A stretch of DNA of 50,948 nucleotides from Folioceros fuciformis. Its lineage: Eukaryota. This document shows positions 24,620 through 47,600 of this stretch, piece after piece. The notes below the pieces were generated by a model that made no database searches, was not told the DNA's origin, and saw only the letters and a program-made list of their open reading frames with translations. The stretch is taken from positions 282,234 to 333,181 of the forward strand of contig JBNGIO010006382.1 of assembly GCA_049999805.1 (NCBI GenBank), in the 5' to 3' direction. The translations under genes and the position numbers were made by a program. Numbering within the stretch: position 1 is the stretch's first letter; each line of letters begins with the position of its first letter.

Positions 24620-26882
24620 ATGGTCGGGCACAAGGATGGCAGCGATCCTAACACCTTGGGCCGCCATATTGCACGCCGGCTGGTGGAAGTGGGAGTGAGA
24701 GATTTCTTCAGCGTACCTGGGGACTTTAATCTGGTGCTACTGGACAATCTGATAGCAGATCCGGGCCTGCGTATGATCGGCTGCTGCAACGAGCTTAATG
24801 CCGGCTACGCAGCGGATGGCTACGCCCGGGCTAAGGGAGTTGGCTGCGTGGTGGTCACTTTCACCGTGGGAGGCCTCAGCGTCATCAACGCCATCGCCGG
24901 CGCGTACAGCGAGAACTTGCCGGTGATTTGCATCGTAGGGGGGCCCAACTCTAACGATTTTGGTACCAATCGGATTCTGCACCACACCATCGGCACGGCA
25001 GATTTCTCGCAGGAGCTGCAGTGCTTCCGGCAAGTCACGTGCTACCAGGTGCGCTGCTTTACCGCTTGCGGATTTGACTCAGGCTTGCTGGCAGAAGTTG
25101 GAATTTTTTGTAGATTCCACTTGCTGATCTTGTACTGGTAATGTCTTTTCTCTCAGGCCGTGGTGCAGAGCCTGGACGAGGGACACGAGCTTGTAGACCG
25201 GGCTATCTCGACTGCGATAAATGAAAGCAAGCCAGTTTACATCAGCGTCAGCTGCAATTTAGCGGGGCTGCCTCATGCCACCTTCGTCACGGATCCTGTG
25301 CCTTACGCGCTCACGAAAAGGTGCGGTTGGGACGCTTCTGACTTGGAAAAAGCAAGCGATTGCTGGGTTACACCTGCGGCTTGCCTGCTCATCTGTTTGG
25401 TTGACGCGCAGGACTAGCAACGCGCTGAGCTTACAGGTGGCGACTGATGCCGCGGCAGAGTTCTTGAATGGAGCCGTCAAGCCGGTGCTGGTGGGGGGGC
25501 CAAAATTGCGTGTGGCCAAGGCGGGGAAGGGATTTGAAGAGCTTGCTACTGCTTGCGGTTACCCGGTGGCTGTGATGCCCTCTGCCAAAGGCCAGTTTGA
25601 TGAGGAGCACCCGCATTTTATCGGCACATACTGGGGAGCCGTGAGCTCGCCGTATTGCTTGGAAATTGTGGAATCCGCGGACGCCTACCTATTTGCAGGC
25701 CCAATCTTCAATGACTATAGTTCTGTCGGATACTCCCTGTTGTTCAAGAAGGACAAGGCGATCATTGTCCAACCTGATCGAGTCTTCATTGGAAATGGGC
25801 CCGCATATGGATGCGTTCTTATGAAGGAGTTTCTGCCCTTGCTTGCCCAGAAGCTGAAGAAAAACACCACAGCTTTCGACAACTTCAGGCGCATTTACAT
25901 TCCTCCCGGGGTGCCTGTGTCGGCAGAGAAGGATGGTCCGTTGCGGGTTAATGTTATGTTCAAACATATACAGGTTGGTATTAGACAAAAGCATCTTTGG
26001 CTGTCATATGCGTGCCGCCCACATGAGCTTTATCCCAAGCGTGATGCTTTCCACTTTTGCAGCAAATGCTCACGGGAGACACAGCAGTGATAGCCGAAAC
26101 GGGAGACTCATGGTTCAACTGTCAGAAGCTGAAACTGCCACATGGATGTGGGTGAGTCACATATCCCGCATAACGTGGTTCACATAAAGTACCAGTGGTC
26201 ATGTTGGATTCTAAGCTGCACTGCAGGTATGAGTTCCAAATGCAGTATGGATCAATAGGGTGGTCGGTGGGTGCCACTTTGGGATATGCTCAAGCGGCTA
26301 CGGAGAAGCGAATCATTGCTTGCATTGGAGATGGAAGTTTCCAGGTGTGTTTCCGAATGACTTCGGTCTTCCATTTATGGTGTCCTATATTTTTCAATTA
26401 CTCATGCTTTGGCTTTCATCACGTGCAGGTGACTGCACAGGATGTCTCCACTATGATCCGGTATGGACAGAAAAGCATTATTTTTCTGATTAACAACGGC
26501 GGTTACACGATTGAAGTGGAAATTCACGATGGACCATATAATGTCATAAAAAACTGGGACTACACTGGTCTCGTCAATGCCTTCGTCAATGGGGAAGGCA
26601 AATGCTGGACCACCAAGGTACGATGCTCCCCGACCGTATGGCGCCTGTTGATTGTTGTTGTCTTCTGTTATTGGCAACAACAGTTGTGATAAGAACTTTC
26701 AAAATGGGTGTCAGGTTCAAACCGAGGAGGAACTGGTTGAAGCGATACAGACAGCACATGACAAAGATGATCATTTGTGCTTCATAGAGGTGATTGTGCA
26801 CAAAGATGACACCAGCAAGGAGCTGTTGGAATGGGGATCAAGAGTTTCTTCGGCTAACAGCAGGCCACCAAATCCACAGTAG
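24620..26882 (+). CDS. PDC: Pyruvate decarboxylase (ThDP-dependent)
   Basis: Exons 24620-25048, 25157-25320, 25412-25973, 26063-26151, 26227-26344, 26429-26617 and 26715-26882; motifs [43 protein letters not shown]...NNGGYTIE and C-terminal [10 protein letters not shown]. Confidence 0.96.
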
Positions 26883-27796: not shown

Positions 27797-29073
27797 TCAC
27801 CTAACACCCGCCGAACCATGCGTAGCCCCCAGCAGCTGACAACCAGAGCCAAAAACGTAGCCTTTCAAAAAGGGCAGTCCGGTTACAGAGACAGAGAGTG
27901 GGCATGCGTTGGCAAGCTCCCATGACAACCTGGTGGCCGCCACACACTCACTGCACAGTGAAGCACGATACGGAACGTAAGCGTCACAAATCTTGCTTGC
28001 CAGATGTCAAATGTTAACTTCATCTCAGTCGAAACAAAGATCCCTTAGCCACGGGCAGTCACACAGAGGCACCTGAACACCAGGAGGCATAGACCCCATA
28101 GCTCCCTCCCTTTTCCCAGATGACTGATCCCCTCCGCCTTGTTTACTAACAGACCCCTTGTCGCCCTAACACCGTGAGTAAGGTTGGGGCCGTAAGAAAA
28201 CGAGCGGCACGATAAAACAGGATGAAGTGACAGAAACAGAAAACAGGCCATCGAGACAGATGCTCACCTCAGTCTTCAGGAATCACATCATCGCGGTTGG
28301 AACGCACATCCCACACCACACAAGGCAAGAATAACACTAAAATCAGCAATCGGCGAGGAAACCAAACTAACTTCAACGGCATCAGCCCTACCGCCGCAAC
28401 ATACCTCCCTATACTTGTGCAGGTAGATTTTCAGAGGCTCCACGTAGTCCTCAAACCCTAGTGTGCTCATAGCCCATAGCAGATCATCCCCATTGATGGT
28501 TTTTCTTCTTTCTCGTTGACACTTGTCACTGGCTCTGCCGGAACCGAGTCAAGCTTGCCACACACCTTCTCAAGCGCCCCTCTCCCACCTCCCTCACACC
28601 CTAACTAACACATGCAGCGGCAGAAGCAGCGGCAGCCACCCTAACTAGCGCCCCAAAAAGGATACTCGCTGGTAATGAAACTGATGAACTCGGACACGCA
28701 CTCCTGCACCGTCTCCTTGGCGTCCTTGGCGATCTTGGCGTTGGCAGGCAGCACCCGCTTCATAATCCGACTGACGTTCGCAATGGGAAGGAACCGGTCC
28801 TGCTCTCGCACATTATGGTTCTCCTCGCCGCCGTGGTGATTCCCATAGTCCTCCCCGGAGTCCTGGCTCCCGGCACTGATGTCATCTGCCAGGGCGCCGC
28901 CTGCAGCGGCCCTGTCAGCACAAACTCCCGCCCACACCCAGCCCTTGCACCCAGGCGACACAACACGACAACGTACCTAGCCCGGAAATTGAAGGGTCCA
29001 GGCTGGTCCGGGCCTTCTTCGAGGCCACGCGCATCTCGGGGTCCTCCGGAGCTCCTTCCGGCTTCCTCATCAT
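27797..29073 (-). CDS. NF-YB: Nuclear transcription factor Y subunit B (histone fold)
   Basis: ATG 29073 (MMRKPEG...) splices in phase 1 to [10 protein letters not shown]...[17 protein letters not shown]...[39 protein letters not shown]...YRE|TE|GDKG.... The last exon and stop (placed at 27797) are uncertain. Confidence 0.88.
28268..28273 (-). other. 6-nt micro-exon (ACTGAG, Thr-Glu) of NF-YB
   Basis: Minus-strand context cctgaag|ACTGAG|gtgagc; inclusion restores YRE-TE-GDKG. Confidence 0.75.
28535..28665 (-). other. Probable U12-type GT-AG intron in NF-YB
   Basis: Donor GTATCCTTT is the U12 consensus; branch-like GCTTGAC near the 3' AG; splits the Glu codon of ITSE. Confidence 0.75.
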
Positions 29074-29955
29074 CCTGGCTACGAGGCAGAACCGGCCTCC
29101 CGGGACAGCAAGGGGAAGTAGGCGCGATGGAGTGAAGTGAGGCGAGCCGAGGCGAGGCGAGGCCGGGAGAGGACAAGCGAGAATGGAGGCGCCCAGCAAC
29201 AGGAGTAGAATCAGTTACAAGCAGTGCAAGCGAGCTCTAAGCTGCAGTCCAGAGGCAGCAAGGTGCACGCTGGGTAGCGCGGTAGGCAGGCAGGCAAAGA
29301 GTATTCAGAGTGAGGAAAGAGAGAGATCCTGGCGGGCGGAGGCGGACGCGGACGCGGAAGCAGAGGCTGCAGGCGCCGGCATAGCCATGGATGCTGTGCA
29401 GGGTATGGATGGCGGGGCACGCTCTTCCTCGCCGCCGTTGGATGTGCTCTCCCTTGTACCGCTGCTTTTCAGCCCGGCACAAGCCAATCCACCGTCAACA
29501 GAGTGAAATGGCTCCCTACTAATAACCCCCCTCACCCCTCACCCCTTGCCTCCGCCCAACTTTTTTCACCTCGCCCTTCGTCTCGCCCATTCCCTTCCCT
29601 TCCCCCACCTTCGTCGCCCCTTCCTCCGATTCTCCCTTAGGCCTACTAACAAAGTTAGTTCGGACACTTTGTGGAAAAAGATAAAATATCTTTCCCACAA
29701 CACACAAACTATCCACAAAGTTGACTCACCTCAGAAGGACTAGTTCAAGGAATAATTATCGTGTTCAAAATTAAAGACAACATGCAATACTAGGTTGGGA
29801 AGTCGAAAGGTTTACCTCTCTCAAAGTTGTTGACGTCATCTATTGTTGCCTTGTACACTCTCGTCCTCGCCGTGGCTTTGTACACTTTAGTCCTCTTAAA
29901 AGCACTATAGTAACCATATGTAATATACAAAAAATATATAACATATGACATACTA

Positions 29956-32407
29956 TAGTCAGACCCCTCTAATTGGGACCCTTATAAATAAGAACCCCCT
30001 TTAAATGAAAGTCAGACCCCTCTAATTGGGACCCTTATAAATGAGAACCCCCTTTAAATGGAACGCCCGGGCTTACTCCCTTGAATGTGCTACATACTAA
30101 ATGGAAAACCCCTCTAATTTGTAAATGGGAATATGTCTCCCAAACATTCAATGTAAGTACACCTTTGTAAAAAAGAAAATACATATTAAAAAAAATAATT
30201 GAAGAAATTATCTTATCGAGATTAAATTATGAGTTATTGAGATGATGTCAAGTTAAAGGCTATCGAGATTATATCATAAAACATAGACAGTCGCGAGAGT
30301 AGTTCTGTACACTATGCTTTGTGATCATAAGCATTGTTCCTAGTACATGAGTTGTTTCATTGTACAAGTTGTCTTATGGAGTTGTAAGTTGTGTTATGGT
30401 GTTGTAAGTTATGTTATGGTGTTGGAAGTTGTTGTCTTGCTGTGAGATATTTTGTATGTGTTCCTTACCCATTCTCTTTGACGTGTAGGAACAATGCCGC
30501 CCAAGCTGCCGCGCAAGCATGCTACCCTAACAAAGCAACAAAAGAAAGAGGTTTGCGAATATTATGTCCAATAGTCTTGCACACTTAAGGAGTTGACTAG
30601 ATGGATAACAAAGAAGTTTTCAATAGCAGCTTCTAAAAGTGCATTGTCTAGGATTGTGAAAAACAAAGACAACTGGTTGGACCCTGCCATTGGTCCAACA
30701 ACTAATATGGCAGGAACGAGGGATAGACCAGTCGTATGCCCACAGGTTGACCACGTAGTACACGTTTGGGCTCTTGCAATCCAAGCTCAAGGTGCCATAA
30801 TTTCAGATGACTTGCTTCGTGAGATGGCTTCCAAATTCCACGAGAAGATTTCTAAAGATGAGAGACCAAAAATGACATACCATAGAGGTTGGGTTGCTCA
30901 CTAGAAGGAAAGGTATAATTTTAAATTAGTTGTCAGACATGGAGAGGTAGGGAGTGTTGACAATATAGAAGCAGTGAAGGTAGCTATTAGAGAGCTGCAA
31001 CTTCAAGTTCTTGATTATGGAGCTGCAAATGTTTTTAATATGGATGAGACTGGTCTTTCTTCAGAGCACCGCCAAACAGGACACTTGCAACAATGCGTAT
31101 TGCAGAACGAAAGTAGTTTAAGGACCGGTTGACAATTGGACTGACAACAAATGTTGATGGATCTTGCAAGTTGTCATCTTCTGTGATTAACAGATATCTT
31201 AGGCCTCGTGCTTTCTCTATCAGGAATGTTCAAAATCCCGAGAATTTAAATATTATCTGGTATGTAAACCAAAAGGCATGAATGACAATAGAGTTGTTTG
31301 AGAAGTTTTTGCTAGATTTTGACCAGAGGATGGTTGCATCAGGGCGGACTAGAGTGTTACTTATAGTGGATAATTGTCCAGAGCATCGGTTGTAATGCAA
31401 CTCAATTGCAAGTTACAAAGGTGGTTTTCTTTCCACCTAATGTGACAAGCGTATATCAATCTTTGGACCAGGGGATCATCTGTTCTTTCAAGGCTCAGTA
31501 TTGTAAGTTGATTTCATACCAATGCAACCTGATCATAGACAATGCTTCTACAACTATCGATGTATATCAAGCGGTGGTTATGCTGGTAAAAGCTTAGACT
31601 TCATTAGTTAGTCCTCATACCGTACGCAATTGTTGGAGGCATAGCACTTTGGATGCGGAATTGCGTGCACAAGATGCTCAATTCTGTGAGTCTTTGGATC
31701 TAAACAGCGCACCATATGATCTAGAGAATCCATTGTTGGATCCTCAAAATCACTCTAATTCGTTGAAAACGTAGGTAGAAGAGCTACAACAGTCTATGCG
31801 AAGCTTAGCATTATTAACATCTAAGGATATGACAGGAATTGCTGATGTTGGATATCCAACGATGACAGGTGAAGAGTATCTAAACTTTGAGGAGGATGAA
31901 GGATTGGAGACTACGTATATTCCTACAGAGGACGAAATATGGCAAGCATTAATCCCTTCGCCTGTCAATGAGGAGGGTGAGGAAAATGATACAGCGTCAG
32001 TGGAGACCATAGCGCCAAGACCGCGTACGACAAAGGATGCTGTAGATAATGCTATGAGCATAGCGAAGATGTTTTTGGAAGAGATGCCATATAATGCTTT
32101 GAAGTTGCATTCTCAGTTGGAAAAACATATTGCTAATCATTAGATGAAAGCAACTCGTCATCAATCAAGGATTGATGGTTATTTTAGCCCGGCAAACTAG
32201 AATTAGGTTGGCAGCTATGTAGTATGAGGGAGCATTTTGGATTTTTTGGAAACTTTTAAGCTCTTTCAAATTTTTGATTAAAAGGATTTTTTTATTTTTT
32301 AACTATTTTTATTTTCAAAAAAAAGATGAAAATGCCTAAATGGGAACCCCTCTAAATGGGAGGATTTTTGCTACTCCCAATTGTTCCCAATTAGAGGGGT
32401 CTGGCTG
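29956..32407 (+). mobile_element. pogo/Tigger-like (Tc1/mariner superfamily) DNA transposon, full-length but decayed
   Basis: TIRs (T/C)AG(T/C)CAGACCCCTCTAATTGGGA at 29956 and, inverted, ending at 32407; flanked by TA (29954-55 and 32408-09); internal subterminal CCCCTCTAA(A/T)TGGG-like repeats. Confidence 0.92.
30494..32200 (+). pseudogene. CENP-B/pogo-type DDE_1 transposase pseudogene
   Basis: MPPKLPRKHATLTKQQKKEVCEY, HTH-like region, NVFNMDETGL, KDRLT, KA*MT, LLIVDNCPEH and FFPPNVTSVYQSLDQGII; several in-frame stops and frameshifts. Confidence 0.9.
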
Positions 32408-32874
32408 TACATGCAGTCCAAGTACAGCTATGTTGTGATGTTCATGCGAAGGGATAAGCCTTCTAGTGTGCAGTCAAAGAGGATCCTAGTGTGTCATGAG
32501 CTCTTGTGGAGTGGAGGCTAGAGTAAAGTTCCATTCCATTTTTACTACTAATAATAACGATTGTAAGGTAGAATAGTCATTAACATTCATAAAATGCAAC
32601 ATTTAGATTTCAAACCATGACCCTTATGCAGCCATTAAGCGATAGGTCTTTTGTAAGGTGATGAATACTCTAAAAAAAGACCATATCTCACGACCAACTC
32701 CAGTCTGTCTATTGTCTTATGTCTTGGTGCAAGTTTTAAGAAATTTGCAGGATACCTTGTACATGGCCCTCATGTCTGAGAAACAAAGGGGCATGAAAGT
32801 ATGCCTAACCACATGGGGATGACAACCACAGAGAGTTGAGAATGACATACTAACCATACATACTCGACAGGTGG

Positions 32875-35165
32875 ATGAGGTGGCATAAGCCACCTCTAGC
32901 CTTGTTGTATTCGATGCATATATCAGCTTACCTACTCCCTTTCTGTAAGGTATCTTTGACATGTGATCCTTTTCTGCCTACGTAGAAGAAGACATACTCC
33001 GACTGAGCTTAAGTCCTGTGGGCAGAGGGGTAGAAGTGGACTTTGCATCCTTAAGGCCTAACTGTTCAGCACTATCTATAGTGTAAGGCCTTTCTCTTAG
33101 TGAAACCTAACTTCAGCAACTCCGTATCTAAGGCTGTGTTCCACTTCATAGCTAACTGCTTCATACCATACAAGCATTTAATCAGCCCACAAGCATGATT
33201 CTCTTTTTCTTTTACCTCATAACCTGGAGGCTGCTGCATGCATATGTGAGTGTCAAGTTTCCCATGTAGGAATGTTGTTTTGACATCATACATTTGCAGT
33301 TCATAATCATAGTGTGTGGATATGGCAAGGATTGTTCTGAGGGTGGCAAGCTTGACGATTGGAGCAAAAGTTTCAAGATAATCCAGTCTTGGGACTTGAG
33401 AGAATCCCCTTGCGACCAAGCGAGCCTTGTACCTATCAAAGGTACCATCTGGCTTTACTTTTAATTTGAAAACCCATTTGCACGAAACCAACTTTCTGAC
33501 TGGTGGCAATTCTGCAAGCTCCTATGTGCCATTTTCGATTAAAGAGTCATATTCTGACTGAATAGCTTTCTCCCACTCAATGTGGACAGGTCTACTCAAC
33601 GCCTCTTGATAAGATTGTGGTTCTATAGGATCCAGGGACATGGTCGTATTAACTTCCACATGTGAAGAGGTGACTCTAAAATCAGGTGCACGATAGTAAT
33701 CTGGAGGTTGCCTCTGACGAGATGGGTATCATCGAGATGGGTCTATAGGTTGAGATCCTGTACAGGCTAGGTAGAGACAGGATCAGCATCATCATCATCC
33801 ATCTCCAGTACTGTATTCTGTCCTTCTTCAGGAGCGGGAGTATGTTGTTCATGCAAGACTGGCGGATTTGGATCTTCAAGCACAGGTATGGGGCAGGTTC
33901 AACTACACCTGCCTCGTTAGTATCTACAAAATCAAAATTTGCTATGTCTTCTCCACCTGCAGGAACAATGTTCTCAGGTCGAACATGTTGAGTTCCATGA
34001 TCAGTTTCATCAAAATAGGAATCAATAAAACCTGTTGAGTCTTCATCACTGTTGAGGACAGGATCCTCAAGAGACTCCAATAATGCCCAGGTGTGACTTT
34101 CATCAAAGGTAACACTACGGGCATACACAATCTTGTTCTTACGGACATCATAAAGCTTATAGGCTTTGATTCCTTCTGTGTAACCTAACATGAGAAGTTT
34201 TTTAGCCTTATCTGACAACTTTTTCCTCTTCTCCTTAGGTATGAAGGCATAAGCCACACAACCAAAAGTTTGCAAGTGTTGAACTTATGGTTTGCAACCT
34301 ATGAAGGCCTCATTGGGGGTTTTGCCTACAATAGAAGTTGAGGGTAACCTATTTCTAAGGTATGTTGAAGTCATAATGGCTTCTGCCCAATATGTCAAGG
34401 GAAGCTGAGTAGAATGTAGCAACGAAGATGTCATTTCCTGCAAAGTTAGGTTAAATCGCTCAACAAGTGCATTCTGTTGAGGGGTATAGACAACTGTTAG
34501 TTGTCGATCAATACCTTCAACCACATAGAAAGCTTGAAGTTCATTGGGGGTAAACTCTCCCCCATTATCTGATCTTAGGGTTTTAAGCCGCTTTCCAGTC
34601 CACCTTTCAACATACTTTAGATAATCTCTAAAATGTCTAAAGCATTCACTTTTTTGCTTTAGAATGTAGGTGGTGACAAACCTGGTTTTGTCATCTGTAA
34701 AAGTAAGGAAGTATCTCCCACCACCTATGGATTCCTGTGAAAGTGGGCCACACAAATCTGTGTGCACAAGTTCTAAAACCTCTGAAGCCCTATGAGGTGC
34801 TTTATTCTTAAAAGCAGCTTGATGTCTCTTAGAAAGAACACAGGACTCGCAAAGTGGGAGTGGAGCCAACGTTCCAATTGGTCCATCTTGATAAAGGTCA
34901 CTAACAGCTAACCTCTGTAGTTTTGCTGTGTGAGGGTGACCTAGTCTTGCATGCCATAACTTAGACTTGTCTATTTGCAGTGCAGATACAGTGGTGACAT
35001 CTCAAGTGAAGTGAGAAGTTGGAGCACTACTACTTGTATGAAGACGAAATAAATCATGGTCTTCAGACCCATAGGCAAGTATTTTTCTATGGTCAAATGT
35101 ATCAAGCAGTTGACACTCAGTTCTTGTGAATAGCATGTGACAGTTGTTGTCAGCATTCAACTTTC
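32875..35165 (-). mobile_element. Ty1/copia element A, 3' part (pre-integrase, integrase, partial RT), decayed and 3'-truncated
   Basis: WHARLGHP, CESC, LVHTDLCGP, LRSDNGGEF, WAEA, CKWVFK, YKARLVARGFSQ, DVKTTFLHG and PYRKGVGKLIY; homology ends near 32875. Confidence 0.9.
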
Positions 35166-35394
35166 TATTGAATAGGTGTTGATTCATTAGAGTTTGATAT
35201 TACCTAGATATATGTGGTGTGTATATAGATTTATTTTAGCTTACCCTTTCATTAGGGTTACGCCCCTTATGAAGAGTTATGTCTTTTCATTTTTAGATTA
35301 AGTCTAGCCTTTCTTGGTTATTCAATTAATTCATTCATATAAAAACATATATATATATAATGTAATTGATCTACACCATTTCCATATTTGGTCA
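35166..35394 (+). repeat. 5' LTR of copia element B
   Basis: Near-identical to 42122-42361 and directly followed by the PBS. Confidence 0.95.
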
Positions 35395-35754
35395 TGGTAT
35401 TAGAGCCATGCTAGGCGTAGATTGCATTCATGAGATGCACATTAAATTCTACACATGTAGATGTGCATATATAAATTTTTATATTGTTTCTTGATTAGAA
35501 AATAGCTTCTAATCAGAAATATAGAAAATGTTCAAGAAAATAAATTGTGATTTGCTTTCTTGATTTTTATTTAGAAAATTTTGCTTTTCTAGGGATCACC
35601 CCTAGTGCACCTGCTGTCAAATTGCTGCAAAGCAATTTGATATCAGGTACACTAGAACGACTGCCTAAAGAGGCAAAAATTCTTTATAAAAACATATAGA
35701 AATTACAATATGCTTCTTGAAGCATTTCAAAAACATAAAAATGTTACCATGTGA

Positions 35755-36487
35755 ATGGCTAATCTACATGGAGGACAACAATGGCAGCCTCGCCCTGCTG
35801 AGCGAGTTCCACAACAGAATCGCAGCCGGGGAGGTGCACAAGTAAACAGGCACAACGTGGCTGGAATTCTCCATCACCTCACCCAAGAATGGATGATTCA
35901 GACACAAGATCAACTTGTACTTGCGCTGGAATTAAGGGAGTCTTTCAATACTAATTGAAACCCTATTTCCTGACCAACGTCACCTTGCATTCATTCCTCC
36001 ACCTACAAATCCTAATCAACTCCTAGAAATACGTGTACAGCGTGCATTTGATGGAAATGGTCACCCTAGAGGTTTCCTAACCACACATGTCACACCACAC
36101 ACAAGTGTTACACAATTTATTGATAGGATTGAAGCCCATCAGCAGCATGTCGACAGGAGATTTCAAACAATCAGCTACAGGCTTGCTGCATCTAGTGTTG
36201 ATATGCGAGACATTGTAGAAAAGATAGAGCACCTGGATTTTAAACTACTTACCTTGTTGAAGCCTGCATTACTTGCAAACCCTGCAACCAGAGGCACTAC
36301 ATGTAAGAAAGCAAGCAAAACAGATAGGTTTCACATGTTTAATACTCCAAACTCGTGCCCATCTTGTTCTACATACGCATTCAATAGATGGGAAAGTAGG
36401 AAACAGAAAATTGAAAACAGAGTCAATATGCAAGCTGCTAACCTACCTCAGGCTGACAGACTTGCTGACCCTGCTGAACCCTTGTAG
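35755..36487 (+). pseudogene. Extra ORF upstream of gag in copia B (coiled-coil-like segment plus C-x9-H-x7-C-x2-C motif), one frameshift
   Basis: Frames 35755-35958 and 35936-36487; homologous to 44286-43811 in element A. Confidence 0.75.
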
Positions 36488-38833
36488 ATTTGCTGCAGTT
36501 AGTAGCTTACCCCTAGATGCGACAATAGCATCTTACCCCAACTCTTTCTGTCCAGAATCATCAGCCCTGTTGACCTGCACAGGATAGGTCAGACAGGTGC
36601 ATTAAACCAACAGTCATAAGATCCTAATTTTTAGGAAGGGCTAACGTTAGTCCTAGACATGGCTGACTCGAACAACTCGAGTATTGATGTATTCAAGGAA
36701 AAGGACAGATTTGGGGGATCAGACTACGACATATGGGTCATGCAAATGCGTGGAGCATTGCAACATAAGCAGCTTTGGAGAGTGGTGAAGGGTGAAGATA
36801 AATACCTTGCTACTGTATCTGCAGACTCTTCCCCTTAAGCTGCTGAAAAGAAGTTGCAGGATGCTTGGACACTCAAGGATGAGTCTGCTCAGTACATCAT
36901 CAAGAGTGGTCTAACCTCTGGCATGTTAAGACAAACTTCAGGTTGCAAAACTGTAGCTGAGATATGGTCCAGACTCAAGGATCTGTATGCAGGAGTTAAC
37001 ACAACAAGTCAGATGGCAGCAATCCGCAATCTTCAAAACTGCAAAATGAGAGATGGGGATACAATCGAGAAACACCTTAGATACTTTACATCTTTGGTGT
37101 CTAAGCTCGAGAGTGCAACACAGGAGCCGGTCTCTGAAGACATGCTCATATTGTATTTTGTAATGTCCCTACCAGACTCGTAGTCACACTTTGTGACATC
37201 TTATAATGCCTCACAACTTCAAGGAAAGAAGATTGCAAAGGCTGCAAATGTCGCATTGCCCCAAACAACATTTTCAGAGTTAGTGGGAGCTCTCCTCCAG
37301 GAGGAAGCTACAAGAGGATCAAACAAATGTGCTGGCAAGCAGCAGGCCTTATACACCAACAACAAAGGAAAGGGCGGGAAGCCCAACTTCAGAGATAAAC
37401 ACAATACCTCAGGTGCTAGCAGCTCTTAAAAGGCTACTACACAGAAGAAGCCCAAGAAGGCTGGAAAGTGTAACTGGTGCCAAATTCCAGGCCATTGGGA
37501 GAACAAGTGTCGTAAGAAGCAGGCCCGAGTACCTCGCAAGGAGGCGAACTCCCCTTCTCAGACACATGTTGTGGTGACAAAACAAGGCTCTCCTTCAGCC
37601 CTAATAGTAGGGAACAGGAAGTTTATTCACCCTCTTGCTAACCCCACTTGTCTATCAGCAAATACACAAGGCAAACCCATACAGGAGTGGTTCCTTGATA
37701 CAGGTGCACCAGCACACATTTGCTTTGATAGAAATGCATTCGTCACATACAGACTAGTTGAAGATCAGTTCGTTTACCTAGGTGACGATAGCTCACTTGT
37801 GTCTCTAGGTTGAGGCACAATAAAGCTTCCAGTTCCTTCAGGCATTACACTTCTCCTCACAGATGTGTATCATGTACCTAAAATGACAAGGAACGTAATC
37901 TCTATTAGGAAGTTGAACATGGATAATAATACTCATATCTTATTCACTCCAACAGAATGTAGGATTATAGATGCTTTTGATCATCGTAAAATCCTAGCTT
38001 ATGGGTCATCAGACCATGACCTCTTCAGGCTGCACACTCACCTTAGTCATGCCAAAGCCAATTTATCTTCCCAGTCGCCAGAGACAGCTGCAAAGCAGGA
38101 AGAAAAGGCTATGTTATGGCATAAATGCTTAGGTCACCCTCACAGTGCTAAGCTGCAGAAACTAGCAACTAGTGACCTGTACAACGATGGGAAAATTGGC
38201 AGTTTGCCACCCTTACCCCTCTGTGAAGCCTGTGTGCTGTCCAAACGCCATCAAGCAGCCTTCACGAACAAAGCACCTCACAGGGCCTCTGAAGTTCTTG
38301 AGCTCGTACACACTGACATATGTGGGCCTTTTTCGCAGCCCTCTATTGGTGGTGGCCGATATTTCCTCACATTCACAGACGACAAGACAAGATTTGTCAT
38401 TGCTTATATCCTTAAAGCAAAAATTGAATGCTTTTCCCTCTTCAAGGACTATCTGAAGCTTGCAGAAAGATGGACAGGGAAACAGTTGAAGACTCTGCGT
38501 TCTGACAATGGGGGGGAATTCACATCTAACGAGTTCCAAGCCTATTGCAGGAATGAGGGGATAGGAAGACAACTTACAGTTGTTTACACACCGCAACAGA
38601 ACGGTGTTGCTGAGCGCTTGAACCTGACTCTGCAAGAGATGATTTCATCCATGCTCCATCAAGCCTCCTTGCCACTATCCTAATGGGCTGAAGCCCTTAT
38701 GACAGCTGTGTATCTATGCAACAGGTTGCCTACAACTGCTGTAACAGGGCAAACTCCCTATAAAGCTTTCTATGGCAGAAAACCAGCTATTCTACGTCTT
38801 TGTACTTTCGGATGCATTGCTTATGCCTTCATC

Positions 38834-38952
38834 TACAAAAACAGGAGAAGCAATCTCACTTAGGAAAAATGATCACATGTATCAAACAAGCAAAANNNNN
38901 NNNNNAGTTGTTGACTAGCTGACGCTAGACTATTCCTAGGCTTCACTTTGCA
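38834..38952. mobile_element. Ends of a further nested insertion (LTR-like) spanning the assembly gap
   Basis: Begins TACAAA and ends TTTGCA; 5-bp TSD TCATC at 38829-33 and 38953-57; excision restores AFIPKAKRSKL. Confidence 0.8.
38896..38905. other. Assembly gap (10 N)
   Basis: Run of n bases. Confidence 1.
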
Positions 38953-41900
38953 TCATCCCTAAGGCCAAGAGATCCAAGTTAGTTGACAAAGCCCAAAAGC
39001 TCCTCATGCTAGGATACATTGAGGGAATCAAAGCCTACAAGCTTTGCAACGTACCTCAGAATAGGGTTATATATTCCCGTAGCGTTACTTTTGATGAAAG
39101 CCGGACTTGGCAGCAAGTGGGAGCTGTTCCCACCTTAGAGGAGGACTTTGACCTATCTGTCCTGCCAGACGTCACCATTTCAGGAGATTGCTCCTGTAGG
39201 GGGGGGAAGAACAATAGCAAAATGACGATCAGCAGGAACAGGCAGATGAACAGGAAGACAACAATGTTTTTGTTGATGATTTGCAGCAGCAACCTCCTCC
39301 AGAAAATGTAGAACCTGATCCAGACATACCTGACCCTGATCCTGATTTGGACGAGGACGAGAATGATCCTTCAGATCCTCCTGATAGCGATTCAGAAGGT
39401 GAACCTGATGCTCAGCCCTTGTTGCCTGAAAATCCACCACAGCCTGAGCGCCATTACCCTACAAGAGATAGATGGGCACCAAACTATTATTAGTCACAGG
39501 ACTTTAGAAGAGCAACTGCTAATGCTACCTACCTGGACCCCATTGAACCACAGTCCTATGAGGACAGGTATAAGGCACGACTCGTAGCTCGTGGTTTCTC
39601 ACAAGTACCTAGTCTGGATTACTTTGAAACATATGCTCTTGTGATGAAGCTGGCCACCTTTCGCACAATCTGTGCCCTGGCAGCACATCAGGACTATGAG
39701 TTAGACATGTTCGATGTTAAAACAGCGTTCTTACATGGCAAGCTAGATACGGAAATCTACATGCAGCAACCTGCAGGATATGAAGTGAAAGGCAAAGAAG
39801 CTCCGACAGCAGCTTATATGTCTGTAGATCTGGTGATGTGGTGTGCTATCTCGCAATATATGTCGATGACCTGATTTTATCCTGCAACAGCCCCACATTC
39901 ATTACCAAGATCAACAAGTTGCTGGCCACCAAATTTGAAATGACAAATCTTGGAGCCCTTCAGAGCTGTCTGGGAATCCTCATTCAGAGAGATAGGAAAA
40001 ACAGATCTATATCTCTCACACAGCCTAGATACCTGTTAGAATGTGCTGAACAGCTTGGCTTGAAGGATGCAAAGCCAGCAGCTACTCCATTACCTTCTGG
40101 ACTGAAGTTTAGCAGATCCATGTGTCCTGAAACGCAAAAGGACATAGATGAAATGAGATCTGTCCCTTACAGGAAGGGTGTTGGTAAACTAATCTATGCC
40201 GCTAATACAACCCGACCTGACGTTGCCTACACCACGAGTGTTCTTTCTCAATACCTCGAGAACCCTGGACAAACACATTGGACTGGTGTCAAGAGAGTGG
40301 TTAGGTTTCTTAAGGGGACATCAAACATAGGAATTCGGTTCAGACACATACCTGGTATGCCGCTTGAGCTTGATATCTATACTGACTCTGACTATGCAGG
40401 TGACATAGACACACGGAGGTCAGTATCTGGCTATGTTGTCATGGTGGCTGGTGGGCCTATATGCTGGTCAAGTAAAAAGCAACCTACAGTTGCAACCTCT
40501 AGCACAGAAGCTGAATATCGTGTACTGATAGCTGCCGCTAAAGAAATAGCCTGGTGCAAGCTAATGTTTAAGGAGCTGGGACTTCCTCTCCCTACTTGCA
40601 CAACCATTAGAACCGACAACCAAGGGTCTATGAATCTGGCCAAAAACCCTATTTTTCACTCCCATACTAAGCACGTGGAAGTGGAATACCATTTCATAAG
40701 GGATCTTATCAAATTAGGCCAAATTATGCTGGAATACGTACCAACAGCTAACAACCCGGCAGATTTGTTCACAAAGGCCCTCAGTAGGGACACTCACAAC
40801 AAGCATATGAAAAGTTTGGGCATGGGCAGCCACGAGGGCTACCCAGAGGCCACAAAAAACCAGTCCTAACCTAGCCTACAAGCTAGGTTCAGCCCTAATC
40901 GTTGCTGTCACAATCATCTAGGTCATCATTGTAGCCTGGTGAAAAGCTATAAAGAGATCTCCTACTTACAGATTCAGAGGAGTCCGAGATCTTCTCCCAT
41001 GAAGCGTAACTGTCAGATTTGGACGAGAAGAACTCTCCACCAGAGCGAGGGGAGTTCCTCTTCTTTCTCTCCTGGTATGAAACTCTCTCTTTCGTCTCTA
41101 GGCTCTGCTCCTCATCCAAGCGATCCTCGGATCCTGCAAGGAGCAGAGCAAGTGGGAGATATTAGCAAAGGCCAGAATACATGACTACAGACCTACAGGG
41201 GGCTTTAGGAAGTTAGTATAAACCAGAAATGGCAATAGATCATATCACCACAAGACAGGACTTACTGTAAATGCTGATCATATGGTCTTCAAAGTTTGGG
41301 CAATTATGGATGCGCACACGGACCATCTTAAGCCCAGTTGCATAGCACCTGTACCAGACAGGACTTCCAGGCAGCCGAGCAGAGCCGAGGGTTACAATTC
41401 TAGTCTTGGACATAAAACCTTTGGGCTCGGGAAACTTTGGAGGCACAGGAGGATGCAAATCGCATAGAGCATAGTGGAACTCACCACGTTCGCGCCTGCG
41501 TACATCAAACGCTGCTCTGGTGAAAGATTGGCTGTAGAGGCGTAGGACGGCAAGGTGGCGCTCCCATCCTCGTTGTGGGTGTTGGGGCCTCGGCCCCCTC
41601 AGCTGTGACAGGAGCAGCAGCTGCCCGACGTCGCTCCTCAACCACAGCTCTTGTTGTGCCTTTCGGCCTTCCCTTAGGGTGGACACCTCCAGCAGATGTT
41701 GCGGCACTGCCTGTTGCTTGTGCTCCAGCTATCTCTTTCCCAGCGCGTGACGAGGAGGCAGTCGTTCTAGCTGCAGGAGCAAACCTGCCTAGAGCATCCC
41801 TCTGGTAGACACGGCGCTTGGCAGGTGAAGACAGGTCTGCAGACTCAGAAGACGAAGACATCATGCCTAGGAGCTTTAGTCTACTCTCTAGGAATCGTGA

Positions 41901-42121
41901 CAGAATGAAGACCGGGACGTAAAAGCAAGCTATTATCCTTATGGCACACCTGTATGGAATCGCCTTCACATAGAGCTGTTCCATTACGCTCTTATGGGGG
42001 TTGGTTGCCTGAGGCTGCCAATCTGGTACACACACACAAACTTGATCTCAACAACAGCAGTCTCCACAAGACGCTCGCGGAGAAAAAGACTGTCCTGTAC
42101 GTAATGATCAACAAGTGGGAG

Positions 42122-42361
42122 TATTGAATAGGTGTTGATTCATTAGGGTTTGATATTACCTAGATATATGTGGTGTGTATGTAGATTTATTTTAGCTTAC
42201 CCTTTCATTAGGGTTACACCCCTTATGAAGAGTTATGTCTTTTCATTTTTAGATTAAGTCTAGCCTTTTTTGGTTATTCAATTAATTCATTCATATAAAA
42301 ACATATATATATAATGTAATTACCTAATGTAATTGATCTACACCATTTCCATATTTGGTCA
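42122..42361 (+). repeat. 3' LTR of copia element B
   Basis: Preceded by a purine tract and followed by the TSD; differs from the 5' LTR by 4 substitutions and 2 small indels. Confidence 0.95.
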
Positions 42362-44640
42362 CTTTCTAACTGAAATTAAATTTCTAGTCATGTCTGGCAC
42401 ATAATAACTGTCATGTAGTGTACTACACCTGACGGAACTAATAAGTCTGTTGTGCCACGACCAGGAGAAACTAGGGATATGCCATCTCCTAGGTAAATGT
42501 ATTGATCCTTAACTGACTGATATGTTTGAAAAGATCCTTTGTCAAAGCAAATGTGGGCTGTAGCACCTGTATCTAAGTACCAGTCTACAGCTTGGCTTAC
42601 CTTCAATTTTGTTGATAGGCAAGCAGGATGCAAGTAGGAACTTGCAAAGACTTTTGTACCTACAGTGAGGGCAGAGGGGGTAGGTTGTTTCTTAACAACC
42701 ACGTGGGTCTCAGCAACTGATGAACCCTTCTTGCGAGGAACACTAGCTTGCTTCTTTCTACACTTACGTTCCCAATGACCAGGTAACTTGCACCAATTAC
42801 AAGTTCCTGTTCTTTTGGGTTTCCTTTGGTTGGCTCCTTGTCCTTGTGAGCCACCACCTCTAGATGTACTGCCTCCACCTTTATTGTAGGGTTTTCCTCC
42901 CCCATGACCCCTATTGGATGTGTAGAGGGCTTGCTGTTTTCCATAACATTTAGTGGAACCCTTTGTTGCGTTTTCTTGGAGCAATGCTCCCATTAACTTT
43001 GCAAAGGTGGTTTCAGGAAGTGTAACATTTGCTGCCTTTGCCAGTTTTGAGGTTTGAAGATGTGAAGCATTAAAAGATGTCACGAAATGTGACCATGATT
43101 CTGGGAGATACAGAAGTATAAGGTTAACATGTCTTCTTTGACACTCTCATTTGAGGACCTCTCCAGTTTCGAGGCAAGTGTCCTGAAATGACCAAGGTGC
43201 TTCTCTACTGATTCTCCATCTTTCATCTTGCAATTCTGTAAATTACGCAAGGCTGTCAACTGACTTGTTGTGTTGCTGCCTGAATACAGATCTTGAAGTT
43301 GTGTCCAGATTTCTGCTGAGGTTTTACATCCGGATGTCTGCCTCAGCATATTTGAGGTTAAACCACTTCGGACTAGGAACATGGCAGCTTCATCCTTAGC
43401 CACCCATTCGTCCTGTTTCATCTTTTCATTACTGGTAGGTGTGGTGGTAGTAGCTGGGAAATCTTCATCACCAACAGCTATCTTCCAAAGCTTTTTATTT
43501 TGTAAAGCTCCACGCATTCTGATTACCCATATGTCGTAATCACACCCACCAAATTTGTCCTTTTCCCTAAACCCTTCCCCACCATAGCTAGATGAGGGAT
43601 CAGCCATTTTTCCTCTTTTGTATTCTGGGTTAGCTACTCCCAAAACATTAAGATGCTAAAAATGACTGACCTTTGTAGGTTTGTTTATCTGGACCTCAGG
43701 CACATGTATCTTCAGCAACAAAGTCAGAGAATGTTAGCAACAAGGTTAGACAACCTGTCATCTACAGGTATATTTGCTAACCCATGATGCTGTGCAATGT
43801 TCCCCATTCTCTAGTTTCTAATCTCCAACGTGTTGTACAAATATAATGCGCAGGAAGGACACAAATTTGGACTATTAAACGTATGAGCTCTACTTGTTTT
43901 CTTAGCGTGCTTACAGGCTGCTCCTCTGAATGCAGGATTAGCAAGCAAGGTAGGCTTCAACAAGGTTAGCAATTTAAAGTCCAAATGATCTATCTTTTCA
44001 ATTAGATCATGCAAGTCAAAAGTCATTGCAATTATCCTTTGTGAGATACTGTCAAAGTGCCTGTCAACTTGTTGCTGGTGTGCCTCAATCCTGTTTATTA
44101 ATTCGTCAACAGTAGGTGATTGAGAGAAATGAGAAGTTAGGAAACCTCTATGATTATAGTTTCTTTGTGGCAGTCGTTCTGCTGCAGCATTTCATGATGC
44201 TTGTGCAACGACTTCTGGCCCCCTGCGACGATTCTGGGGTGAATCCGCTTAGCAAGGCGATGCCAGCCATCCACTCGATCGGCCATTCATTTGGCAAGAT
44301 TTTTGTGTTGACACAATTCCTTTTTAAACATTCTGAATTATATATGAATTTCACTAATAATCTGACTATAGATTAGGTAGTTGTCCTAGCGCATTCCTAC
44401 TGGTTTTGCTCAGGTAGCAAATTGGGGGGATTCGTCGGGATCACTCCCTTAATCTAATAGAAATTATAAGTGCATCTATATAAACAATCAACACAAAATA
44501 TGTTCTTTATATTTTCTATGTCTTGATCAAGGAAATTCATCTCTAAATCAAAACAAACAAGAAAATTGTATAAATTCATTCTTTCAAATGCATTTTTAAA
44601 TGTGCATTCATTGCAACACAACTTGCATTCATGACCTATA
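42362..44640 (-). mobile_element. Ty1/copia element A, 5' part (5' UTR, extra ORF, gag, protease); LTR and PBS not seen
   Basis: gag ATG 43607 (MADPSSSY...KDKFGGCDYDIW), zinc knuckle CNWCKLPGHWERKC and protease WYLDTGAT; the reading frame RNLISVRK|LNADNN continues across the element-B insertion. Confidence 0.9.
43811..44286 (-). pseudogene. Extra ORF upstream of gag in copia A (homologue of 35755-36487)
   Basis: RGFLTSH, RIEAHQQQVDRHF, LIEKIDHLDFKLLTLLKP and CKHAKKTSRAHTFNSPNLCPSC; internal deletion and frameshift relative to B. Confidence 0.75.
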
Positions 44641-44649
44641 AACGTTGCC

Positions 44650-47600
44650 CTAGACAAAGAAACTTCGTCGTCGGGCTTCGTTCTTCGGCCTTCAGTCTTC
44701 GCGACACCGCCAGTCTTCACGCCGCTCATCGCCATGCCTGCTGCTCTCCGGATCGGAGCTGGTTATCCACCGCAAGCTTTTCCCTAAGGCTCTCAAGCCA
44801 AGTGCAGCTGCATGCTCATAGTGTTTTACGCGTCCTAGGGCCTTGGTCAAGATGTCCACTGTCATTCTCTCAGTTGGGCAATAGACAACCTGGATAATTC
44901 CTGCTGTGGCCATCTCTCGGACGAATCTATGCTGGATTTTGATATGTTTGGTGCGGGCGTGAAACCTGGGATTCATAGTGAGTGCTATCGCACTCTGATT
45001 GTCACAGAATAGCATGATTGGGAGCTGTTGTTCGAAGCCGAGCTCGCGCAATGCTCCCACTGTCCACACAACCTCCTTGGTTGCTCTTGTAAGACTTTTA
45101 AACTCTGCCTCTGTGCTAGATAGAGCTATGGTGGTTTGTTTCTTACTGCTCCATCCTACTGCAGCGCTTGCCAAAAGAGTAACGTAGCTGGAGACGCTGT
45201 GACGGTCATCTGGGTCCCTAGCCTAGTCGGCGTTGCTGTATGCCACAAGGGTGAGTGGCTTCTCTGCCTTGGAAGTGCCTTGTCGTCATAATCAATGCCA
45301 AGTATTTGTGAATACCCCTTTGCTACAACTCTACCCTTGTATCGCTCGACACTTCCGTCTGCCTTCAATTTTATTTTGAATACCCATTTACAGCCGACTG
45401 CTTTGCAGCCTACTAGCAGGCTGGTTAATGTCCATGTGTTGTTTTCATGCAAGGACGGAAGCTCCGAGTTTATTGCAACCTTCCACAAGTCTGCATCTGG
45501 GCAGGACATAGCCTCCGCATAAGACTGAGGCTCATATAGTTGTGCATTTGCAGCAAGACAATAAGTCAGATGTAACTTTGGATGTCTAAAGTCCTCTGGT
45601 TTGTAGTATTCAGGTTGCCTATGTGTTCTAGTCGATTGGCGAGGTGCCAAGTGTGCGTGCTTGTCCCTTCTTCTTTGCTGTGGCCAGGTTGGAGATACAT
45701 TAGGATTTGATAGGGCATGATCATGTGTAAACCCTAGATCAAACTTGACATGTTGTACTTGAGGTGAGTCAAACAAACTCCTGTTGCTCACTGCTCTTCC
45801 TGGCGTCTTTAGTGGTGTCTGAACACGTGGCGTTGCAGGTACTGGGCCCTAAATAGGTGCAGGTGCTGGTGGCATGACTGGTGCAGCTCCAGTTGCTGCA
45901 GACTGTCCAGGTGGTGCTGACTGTCCAGGTGGTGGCAAAGGCACTCTCACATTGCCTACCAATACTTCGTCCAGGCCATAGTCAGAATCTTCATCTGAGG
46001 AGTCCTCAAAATGATTACTTGAAGCTCCCACTTGCTCACTGAACTCGACGCCTTCCACAAACACTACATCTCGTGAGTGTATGACCTTCCTCGTTTGCTT
46101 GTCCAGAAGCTTGTAGCCCTTAATGCCATCTGTGAACCCAACGAATATACATGGCCTAGACTTGGGCTCAAATTTCTTACGGATGTCCTTGTGTATCTGG
46201 GCATATGGAGGTGATCCGAACACACGCACATGAGCTAAGTTTGGTCTCCTTCCCGTCCATAGTTCATAGGGCGTGGTGCCCGGAACAGCTGCATGTGGAA
46301 TCCGGTTCTGAATATAGTTTGCATAGGCTACAGCTTCAGCCCAGAAAGACTTCGGTAATTTTGCATGCTGTAGCATGCTGGAAGCGGAGGTCTGTAGGCT
46401 CCAATTTTTGTTCTCTACAATGCCATTCTACTGGGGAGTGTGAGGATTTATTAGCTGTCTCAATATGCCTTGGCCTTTGAGAATGCCTGAAATTCACCCG
46501 AAGTGTACTCCCCGCCATTATCCGATCTCAAGGCCTTCAGTTTGCGGCCAGTTTGTAGCTCAGCCTAGCGCAGAAACTCCAGAAAGCATTTGAATGTCTC
46601 TAACTTGTACAGGAGAAAGTACACCACGCAAAAGCATATATAATCATCAATGAAGGTGATGCAATACTCCTTTCCGCCTATGGACTTGGGAAGTGGCCCA
46701 AACAAGTCGGTATGCACCAGTTCGAGTGTTGCTTATGCTCTCATTGGGAAGTCAGTCGGAAAAGAATGCTTCTTGTGCTTGCCGAGGATGCAAGCCTCAC
46801 AAACCCCAAAGTCTTGCAAGGGGTCCGAGGAAATGCCTTCTACCAACTTCGCCTTCTGCATTTGTACAAGCTTCTTATAGTTGACATGGCCAAGGCATAG
46901 GTGCCAGAGATATGCTGGTGAAGGTTGAGCATAGGATTTGCTAACAGCATTTGCCTTGGCTTCTTGCATATCAAGGTGATACAGGTCGTCGTCCTCCAGT
47001 CGTCCAGTGGCAAGCAAGGTGCCAGCTCTAGACTCCACAACACACTTCCCTCCGCCAAAGCACACAAAACAACCTGATTCATCAACCTTCCTTACAGAGA
47101 CCAGGTTTTTGGTCAGTCCAGGTACGTAGAGTACATCATGAATTGCGAGATGTTGTGAGGGCTTGAGGTCTAATTGTATAGTACCTTGCCCTTCAATTTT
47201 GTGCCGGGTATCATCCTCGAGGCACACAAACTCCATAGGGGAGCTCTCTCGCATGTCAACAAAATAGGAAGGATCAAGTGTCATGTGTTGGGAAGCGACA
47301 CTGTCTATGTACCAGGTGTTCTCCTGTTGGTTAGCATAGCAAGTAACCACATTGCATTGTGAGTCCTTAGATAAATGAGTAGGACTTGTGGTATCACCTG
47401 GGGCACAGCTTGTGAGAAAGGCTCTGCTGTACTTGTTCATAGTTACAGCTAGGTGTCCAGAATGGCTGCTGCCTTCGCCTGCAAGGCGTTTCCTACATGT
47501 TTCCCAGGTGTGATTAGTCATTCCGCAATGACCACGTGGCGGCCGACCTTTGGGGTTGTTGTACAGTTGAGGTCTCGCTCCTCCTCGACCACCACGGCCA

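Follow-up and report, generated by a model that had tools for sequence, protein, structure and literature searches.

A probable accessory gene under purifying selection between the primer-binding site and gag of a Ty1/copia retrotransposon family in Folioceros fuciformis

Background

Open reading frames (ORFs) in addition to gag and pol are found in most lineages of long terminal repeat (LTR) retrotransposons, as stated in a 2025 review (PMC12786077). Extra ORFs located upstream of gag have been described for Ogre (PMC2533021) and for the Tekay chromoviruses Retrosat2, RIRE3, RIRE8 and sunflower Tekay (PMC3485330, PMC11728184). Here, an ORF in this position is described for a Ty1/copia family. 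It was identified on a stretch of 50,948 nucleotides (nt) of Folioceros fuciformis (GenBank assembly GCA_049999805.1, contig JBNGIO010006382.1, positions 282,234 to 333,181, forward strand). This entire stretch is referred to as the window, and all positions are given in its numbering. The ORF, designated extra ORF in the following, is present in two related elements of the window, A and B, and precedes gag in both.

An earlier note on this DNA, prepared from the sequence alone, had drawn attention to the extra ORF on the assumption that gag-pol is all that canonical copia elements encode. This assumption is too strong. In REXdb, 582 Ty1/copia elements were recorded with extra ORFs that have a length of 250 codons or more; these ORFs were sorted into 45 similarity groups, and a 5'-forward class was defined (PMC6317226). 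The main text of that study names just the downstream ORF of SIRE among the copia extra ORFs, and its authors doubt that many extra ORFs function at all (PMC6317226). ORFs downstream of pol predominate also in the review PMC7264820, according to which some extra ORFs were acquired by transduction and transduced ORFs occur in one or few copies. The note had further attributed upstream extra ORFs to Ogre, which is correct for this group and has to be extended to the Tekay chromoviruses mentioned above. A literature search of full texts, a collection that leaves most subscription journals outside, yielded no Ty1/copia family for which a conserved ORF has been described between primer-binding site (PBS) and gag.

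Results and discussion

Location and decay of the extra ORF

Exactly two copies of the extra ORF were detected in the window by tblastn and by comparison of a hidden Markov model (HMM) of the pair with all six reading frames, and both family members present (2/2) carry it. The extra ORF is located on the sense strand in the interval between PBS and gag, and is delimited by a start codon (ATG) and a stop codon separate from those of gag, which are the features of a 5' additional ORF (aORF, or 5'-forward extra ORF, eORF-5'F). The start codon and its surrounding context could be aligned between A and B at the nucleotide level. The coordinates of all features are compiled in Table 1.

Both copies are broken. 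The earlier note had reported an ORF of about 240 codons in B. The respective region comprises 733 nt and is not divisible by 3; the frame starting at the conserved ATG is closed after 67 codons, and the frame that is conserved between the elements, shifted by +1 relative to the ATG frame, extends over 183 codons from stop to stop. The frameshift is located somewhere within the overlap of the two frames (35936-35958). In A, a homologue had been assigned to positions 44286-43811. Homology was substantiated, but the presumed intact frame was not: within these 476 nt, the frame of the conserved ATG at 44286 is closed after 49 codons and the conserved frame covers 126 codons (44191-43811). Moreover, similarity to B runs past the stop codon at 43813-43811 (ANIPVDDRLSN vs ANLPQADRLAD) and ends with a stop codon at 43726-43724. 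The breaks in A are one frameshift near 44240, where a one-base length difference in the nucleotide alignment with B leads from the frame of the ATG to the conserved one, and the in-frame stop codons 44194-44192 and 43813-43811. Because of these frameshifts and stop codons, the extra ORFs of A and B were regarded as pseudogenised remains of approximately 187 and 244 codons, respectively.

Further copies were recognised in contigs from two DNA sequencing runs of the same organism (X1 and X2), which were evaluated at a likeness of at least 80% and covered both extra ORFs. The extra ORF of A was covered by up to 10 contigs of one DNA run. In place of the stop codon 44194-44192, a sense codon was found in 2/2 contigs of X1 and in 7/7 contigs of X2. 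Since all other contigs read a sense codon at this position, the stop codon is private to the window copy of A. Forty of more than 2100 sequence differences were listed, and four of these were located within the extra ORFs. Among the differences listed, 44204 (A) and 36259 (B) were synonymous, and 43839 (A) was nonsynonymous and affected a column that is also variable between A and B. This comparison demonstrates additional copies of the extra ORF, and shows at least one of the breaks to be confined to a window copy.

A further run (X4), guessed to be RNA, yielded only two pieces that overlap the extra ORFs, both short and diverged (35998-36087 and 43891-43943). Nothing was drawn from them.

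Coding status and selection

The conserved frames of A and B were aligned over 115 codons without gaps, with 68/115 identical residues (59%; BLASTP E-value 1e-41). Nucleotide identity at codon positions 1, 2 and 3 amounted to 71, 77 and 50%. The proportions of nonsynonymous (pN) and synonymous (pS) differences over these codons were 0.246 and 0.685, the synonymous divergence (dS) was 1.83, and omega, the ratio of nonsynonymous to synonymous divergence according to Nei and Gojobori, was 0.16 (range 0.16-0.17); omega is a rough figure because it was derived from one sequence pair with saturated synonymous sites. The remaining two frames of the same alignment yielded values of 1.09 and 1.19. The 117 nucleotide differences were distributed as 33/26/58 over the codon positions 1/2/3 (chi-square p 7e-4). 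Neutral evolution was simulated in 5000 runs by placing an equal number of random changes on the B sequence. The observed pN/pS of 0.36 was reached in 0/5000 simulations (mean 0.88, minimum 0.43). A stop codon was created in 4802/5000 runs, whereas the real pair shows none in the 115-codon block. In the 21-codon block I(E/D)HLDFK...ANPA, eight synonymous codon differences and two amino-acid changes were counted, exactly as given in the earlier note, and its claim of purifying selection at the protein level is supported by the omega of the A-B pair. The extra ORF has been shaped by purifying selection while the A and B sublineages diverged to synonymous saturation.

In a comparison of all coding parts of A and B, pN was 0.249 for the extra ORF, 0.24-0.26 for gag pieces and 0.19-0.33 for pol pieces. 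As pN is alike in the extra ORF and in gag, the extra ORF is constrained as strongly as gag. The GC content is 30% in the leader before the ATG and 42-44% in the extra ORF, and both the leader and the spacer flanking the extra ORF align poorly between A and B. In the N-terminal segment, 21 gap-free codons were compared, 5 of which were identical, 6 synonymous and 10 nonsynonymous; this codon pattern is weaker, yet leans towards coding.

The same data bear on the possibility that a signal acting in cis as RNA or DNA (packaging, dimerisation or promoter), and not a protein, is what has been conserved. The region is part of the leader of the genomic RNA, and long hairpins are located just upstream in both elements (Table 1). 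However, 58 of the 117 differences fall on third codon positions, omega is about 1.1 in the off-frames, and 115 codons are open in both copies. The hairpins are positioned before the ORF and not inside it, automatic alignment of the two sequences gave no structure common to them, and a comparison with Rfam gave no match at threshold. A cis-acting signal was therefore considered highly improbable as the cause of the conservation.

Relation to gag

In both elements, gag starts with an ATG of its own, before which its frame is open for only 8 codons (B) or 16 codons (A). The Gag protein of A matches the Retrotran_gag_2 profile from profile position 1. The extra ORF and gag are separated by a spacer of approximately 115-170 nt, which contains in-frame stop codons and is poorly aligned between the elements. 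Comparison of the extra ORF with the gag alignment resulted in an hhalign probability of 0.4%, and BLASTP against the knuckle-bearing part of the A gag in an E-value of 0.18. The earlier note had taken the extra ORF for an additional gene that precedes gag in a copia lineage. The separate gag ATG, the unconserved spacer and the hhalign result agree with this, and speak against an N-terminal part of Gag.

It is nevertheless conceivable that the extra ORF is a part of Gag, i.e. an N-terminal extension or an upstream exon, which in intact copies would be linked to gag through splicing, read-through or frameshifting. Both ORFs are located on the same strand in close succession and start with MA(N/D), and in A and B alike gag is preceded by an AT-rich tract with AG at its end. 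On the other hand, the extra ORF is terminated by a stop codon in both elements, and a candidate splice donor in the B leader (CAG/GTAC, at approximately 35645) is absent from A. Together with the closed gag frames, the match of the A Gag from the first profile position onwards and the hhalign result, this makes an origin as part of Gag improbable.

Predicted protein

The encoded protein is predicted to be approximately 190-245 residues long and to have a pI near 9; the individual pieces have pI values of 8.9-9.4. The start MA(N/D) is followed by an Arg-rich stretch, a linker of 11 residues in A and approximately 75 residues in B (about 220 nt longer in B), the motif RGFLT(T/S)H, a heptad stretch, the motif LLTLLKPxLLANPA, a Cys/His motif of the spacing C-x9-H-x7-C-x2-C, and the short tail AN(L/I)P..DRL. 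The heptad stretch is coiled-coil-like: 12/14 of the a and d positions are hydrophobic in both copies, vs 9/34 of the other positions. All four sequence blocks quoted as shared in the earlier note were found in both copies, and the Cys/His spacing given there holds in A and B. It differs from that of the Gag nucleocapsid knuckle, C-x2-C-x4-H-x4-C. The gag of A carries a canonical CCHC knuckle of its own elsewhere (CNWCKLPGHWERKC).

Selection on a gene of a retrotransposon acts only via propagation of the element, and the product of the extra ORF must therefore help the element. Two well-known proteins may serve as models. Both are small and basic. The gene of the virion-associated protein of plant pararetroviruses (ORF III or ORF2 product) immediately precedes that of the capsid. 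The ORF1 protein of long interspersed nuclear elements (LINEs) is encoded by the first cistron, and both proteins combine a coiled-coil region for oligomerisation with a nucleic-acid-binding end. By analogy, the extra-ORF protein would oligomerise through its coiled coil, and would bind nucleic acid, most plausibly the RNA of the element itself, or the Gag particle by means of its basic N-terminus together with a Cys/His knuckle that holds zinc. We infer oligomerisation, metal binding and ligand from this layout, and propose the mechanism tentatively, as one of several that may apply. The analogy concerns layout and function, and sequence similarity to the two model proteins was absent in the Pfam-A scan.

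Searches for relatives

A comparison with Pfam had been suggested in the earlier note. Nothing significant was obtained for either copy, and no family of the complete Pfam-A collection matched any part of A or B at an E-value of 0.03 or lower. Word-indexed protein searches yielded 57 candidates of near length with B as query, 48 candidates of near length with the A+B alignment, and 1088 candidates of longer length with the A+B alignment; 0 candidates scored in each case. An exhaustive HMMER search of 1.84 billion representative proteins gave a single match (P0001). It was rejected as a 17-fold tandem repeat that aligned to residues 4-48 of the query only, outside the conserved block. Of 592 pattern matches in metagenome contigs, one (L001) passed tblastn; this GC-rich contig encodes a repetitive coiled-coil protein retrieved via the search pattern itself, and was rejected as well. 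Viral contigs contained 84 pattern matches for the extra ORF and 119 for the integrase alignment, and prokaryote genome contigs 391 pattern matches, with 0 relatives in each set. In the window, an ORF upstream of a further copia element (C) at 48611-48973 was rejected as homologue, with 18-residue matches at E-values above 1 and an HMM domain E-value of 0.17.

When the profile of the pair was compared with the sequences of the PDB, the top match was the heat-shock-factor-binding protein HSBP1 (3ci9; E-value 0.27, 14.1 bits), with an alignment of 42 residues that contains the FQTIS stretch. HSBP1 (PF06825) was also the top Pfam match of the A coiled coil, with 14.0 bits and an E-value of 0.046 at a gathering cut-off of 28.6 bits. 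The main alternative to binding of nucleic acid or Gag is a real gene whose protein acts on a host factor, for example as a mimic of heat-shock-factor-binding protein or as an adaptor for targeting or for interference with silencing or stress signalling. A heptad coiled coil is common to HSBP1 and the extra-ORF protein, and local similarity within it is seen in the A copy only. However, both HSBP1 scores are far from significance (14 vs 28.6 bits, half of the cut-off), no HSBP1 match was obtained for the coiled coil of B, and the second-best PDB match, the coiled coil of influenza HA2, scored nearly alike (E-value 0.48). The extra ORF also has added N- and C-terminal regions. HSBP1 proteins are not known to carry a Cys/His motif. 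Because the scores are below threshold and HA2 is similar, the likeness was read as a generic coiled-coil resemblance and as a lead only, and an action on a host factor appears unlikely.

Leader and translation

The B leader contains 9 ATGs before the start of the extra ORF (counted over 35395-35754) and the A leader 11. Between the start of the extra ORF and the gag ATG, 14 ATGs are present in B and 10 in A. The leader hairpins of A and B are centred on the same TTTGCT...AGCAAA apex. Automatic alignment of the two sequences revealed no leader structure common to A and B. No Rfam family was matched at threshold, and MIR8007 reached only 31 bits on the B leader hairpin, vs a cut-off of 195. The extra ORF and gag may be expressed by way of shunting, of internal initiation or of separate transcription.

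Assessment of the extra ORF as an accessory gene

The extra ORF is probably a genuine lineage-specific accessory gene of the 5' additional ORF type, which forms a separate sense cistron between PBS and gag in a plant Ty1/copia family and of which both window copies have decayed. A number of points weigh against this assignment. The selection test compares two sequences, the synonymous sites of which are saturated (pS 0.68; dS undefined in several pol pieces), and the invariance of the four Cys/His residues is likewise that of two sequences. The window holds no ATG-to-stop version of the extra ORF, as A and B are both broken. No homologue was found in any protein or contig collection searched. 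Owing to the many intervening ATGs, one RNA could not serve both cistrons under simple scanning. Finally, the GC content at third codon positions (GC3) of the extra ORF is 0.32 in B (35936-36484) and 0.36 in A (43814-44191), and that of gag-pol 0.43-0.47.

The lower GC3 may fit a foreign origin of the extra ORF and is uninformative on function. It is the basis for regarding the extra ORF as a passenger, i.e. a fragment of a host or foreign gene that was transduced by an ancestor of A and B and conserved for a time, but is useless to the element. Such an origin by transduction is described for some extra ORFs (PMC7264820), and the doubts of the REXdb authors about function (PMC6317226) point in the same direction. 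However, no homologue from a host or another source was present among the 1.84 billion representative proteins or in the word-indexed searches. An omega of about 0.16 and 115 codons free of stops at synonymous saturation would not be expected of a useless passenger. Furthermore, transduced ORFs are reported from one or few copies (PMC7264820), whereas the extra ORF occurs in two deep sublineages and several further contigs. A passenger is thus an unlikely explanation, and an accessory gene of the element remains the preferred one.

Comparison with described extra ORFs

The extra ORF belongs to a known class, the upstream extra ORFs, which is established in Ty3/gypsy elements; its relatives went undetected. 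ORF0 or 5'aORF of the Tekay elements (Retrosat2, RIRE3, RIRE8 and sunflower Tekay group 2) is likewise a sense ORF between 5' LTR/PBS and gag, and is described as conserved within families, devoid of domains, fast-diverging between families and unassigned in function (PMC3485330, PMC11728184). In contrast to the extra ORF, which resides in an element with integrase before reverse transcriptase (RT), ORF0 belongs to the Ty3/gypsy superfamily. By its published description, with which the comparison was made, the ORF0 protein has approximately 400 amino acids and is proline-rich and mostly disordered, and a layout of coiled coil plus Cys/His motif is not part of that description. The pentapeptide HRGFL, which the extra ORF has in common with the nuclear localisation signal printed for the sunflower Tekay protein (PMC11728184), was rejected as too short to count.

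ORF1 of Ogre (Ty3/gypsy, Tat clade) is also located upstream of gag, e.g. as a 1527-bp ORF in Medicago Mtr70 (PMC2533021). Compared by description, it differs from the extra ORF in that it is approximately three times longer and that its carriers, of the gypsy type, exceed 20 kb and have an intron in pol. The copia extra ORFs of REXdb share the superfamily with the extra ORF, and are heterogeneous in sequence and unassigned in function (PMC6317226). This comparison was made at the level of the main text of that study; copia groups with 5'-forward ORFs would be named only in its supplements (PMC6317226). The env-like ORF of SIRE (eORF-3'F) is located downstream of pol, whereas the extra ORF lies upstream of gag. 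With approximately 244 (B) and 187 (A) codons, breaks included, the extra ORF is shorter than the 250 codons taken as minimum in REXdb, and ORF screens with such a floor can miss genes of this size.

Elements carrying the extra ORF and remainder of the window

Element B, 7196 bp in length, has the complete structure of an LTR retrotransposon. Its Pfam domains are arranged in the order Retrotran_gag_2 (36839-37180), Pol_BBD, gag_pre-integrs and rve (37430-38680), SH3_retrovirus (38940-39308) and RVT_2 (39494-40866). As integrase precedes RT, the domain order is of the copia type. Paired LTRs with a 5-bp duplication and the copia domain order place B in the Ty1/copia superfamily (Pseudoviridae). 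The PBS (TGGTATTAGAGCC) may be of the tRNA-Met type.

The LTRs of B start with TA instead of the usual TG and are very short (229-240 nt). The same peculiarity is reported for TARE1, a tomato family of the Ale lineage with 194-bp LTRs and TA...CA termini (PMC3701649). The PBS printed for TARE1, TGGTATCAAGAA, resembles that of B (PMC3701649).

From the stop codon of pol to the polypurine tract, B contains 1.24 kb (40870-42109) with GC-rich antisense ORFs. Those at 41508-42047 (180 codons) and 41243-41728 (162 codons) gave no match in Pfam and have no second copy in the window. By place and orientation they recall the antisense extra ORFs described for Grande, RIRE2 and Retand (PMC7264820).

Element B is nested on the opposite strand in the polyprotein of the related element A, and homology to B is continuous from 42362 to 35163 of A. 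Element A resumes to the left of the insertion at 35165-32717, and its pol could not be traced past approximately 32700. The 5' LTR and PBS of A are missing, and homology of its leader begins near 44640. The leader abuts the pol stop codon of the unrelated copia element C (44692-48277, minus strand), with 44640-44692 as junction region, which suggests a deletion or recombination junction.

Relative to window positions 35395-44750, a further DNA run of the same sample (X3) showed 457 C>T and 506 G>A changes and at most 59 changes of each other class. An excess of this kind is the pattern of bisulfite-treated DNA, and the run could serve for reading the methylation of the elements.

Outside these elements, the window contains three host genes, a remnant of a Tc5/pogo-like DNA transposon and a LINE fragment (Table 1). 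The host genes mark the source of the DNA as a land plant. A 53-nt unit is duplicated at the left end of the Tc5/pogo-like remnant.

Table 1. Coordinates of the extra ORFs, their carrier elements and other features of the window
Feature	Position	Strand	Remarks
Extra ORF of B, overall	35755-36487	+	
Extra ORF of B, N-terminal segment	35755-35958	+	conserved ATG, frame 1; basic, Arg-rich
Extra ORF of B, main segment	35936-36487	+	stop-to-stop
Conserved block of B	36056-36400	+	ungapped alignment with A
Heptad stretch of B	36116-36259	+	48 residues; unbroken 3-4 hydrophobic repeat, coiled-coil-like
C-x9-H-x7-C-x2-C motif of B	36302-36367	+	four candidate ligands invariant
Extra ORF of A	43724-44286	-	conserved ATG at 44286
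Conserved block of A	43817-44161	-	counterpart of B 36056-36400
Heptad stretch of A	43958-44101	-	48 residues; unbroken 3-4 hydrophobic repeat, coiled-coil-like
C-x9-H-x7-C-x2-C motif of A	43850-43915	-	four candidate ligands invariant
Spacer, extra ORF to gag ATG in B	36488-36659	+	unconserved
Leader of B	35408-35754	+	AT-rich, 30% GC
Leader hairpin of B	35556-35702	+	approximately 150 nt; -56.8 kcal/mol; z-score -8.5; 0/200 shuffles as stable
Leader hairpin of A	44330-44500	-	weaker; z-score -2.1; 4/200 shuffles as stable
Target-site duplication CTTTC of B	35161-35165 (left), 42362-42366 (right)		read directly; flanks LTR ends
5' LTR of B	35166-35394	+	229 nt; termini TA...CA
Primer-binding site of B	35395-35407	+	TGGTATTAGAGCC; immediately 3' of 5' LTR
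gag-pol of B	36660-40869	+	gag ATG at 36660; degenerate: in-frame stops, frameshifts, at least 7 open pieces, 11-N gap
11-N assembly gap	38895-38905		inside integrase region of B
Polypurine tract of B	42110-42121	+	adjoins 3' LTR
3' LTR of B	42122-42361	+	vs 5' LTR: 4 mismatches and one 11-nt indel
gag of A	43080-43607	-	own ATG at 43607
WAK-type receptor kinase, host gene	4844-7313	-	GUB_WAK_bind, WAK_assoc, Pkinase
Pyruvate-decarboxylase-like thiamine pyrophosphate enzyme, host gene	24605-26686	+	
NF-YB histone-fold factor, host gene	28644-28976	-	
Tc5/pogo-like DNA transposon remnant	29954-32409	+	HTH_Tnp_Tc5 and DDE_1 fragments; 25-nt terminal inverted repeats, 92% complementary
LINE zf-RVT fragment at window end	50456-50947	-	

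Conclusions

The extra ORF could, in a reading that goes well beyond its assignment as an accessory gene and that we put forward with reserve, be the first conserved and selected accessory gene upstream of gag in plant Ty1/copia elements. It would then represent a new protein family with a coiled coil and a CHCC zinc motif that is needed in trans, either as a chaperone of RNA or particle or as a counter to silencing or stress control by the host. The hairpin-rich, AUG-laden leader would suggest that translation is non-canonical, like that of plant pararetroviruses.

Copia elements are usually regarded as consisting of gag-pol only, and almost no extra ORF of a plant LTR retrotransposon has a known function. 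On the question whether extra ORFs function, selection speaks unusually clearly in the present case, as the extra ORF has been held as tightly as gag. Within the copia superfamily, it represents a small, concrete and testable candidate for an accessory factor encoded by the element itself.

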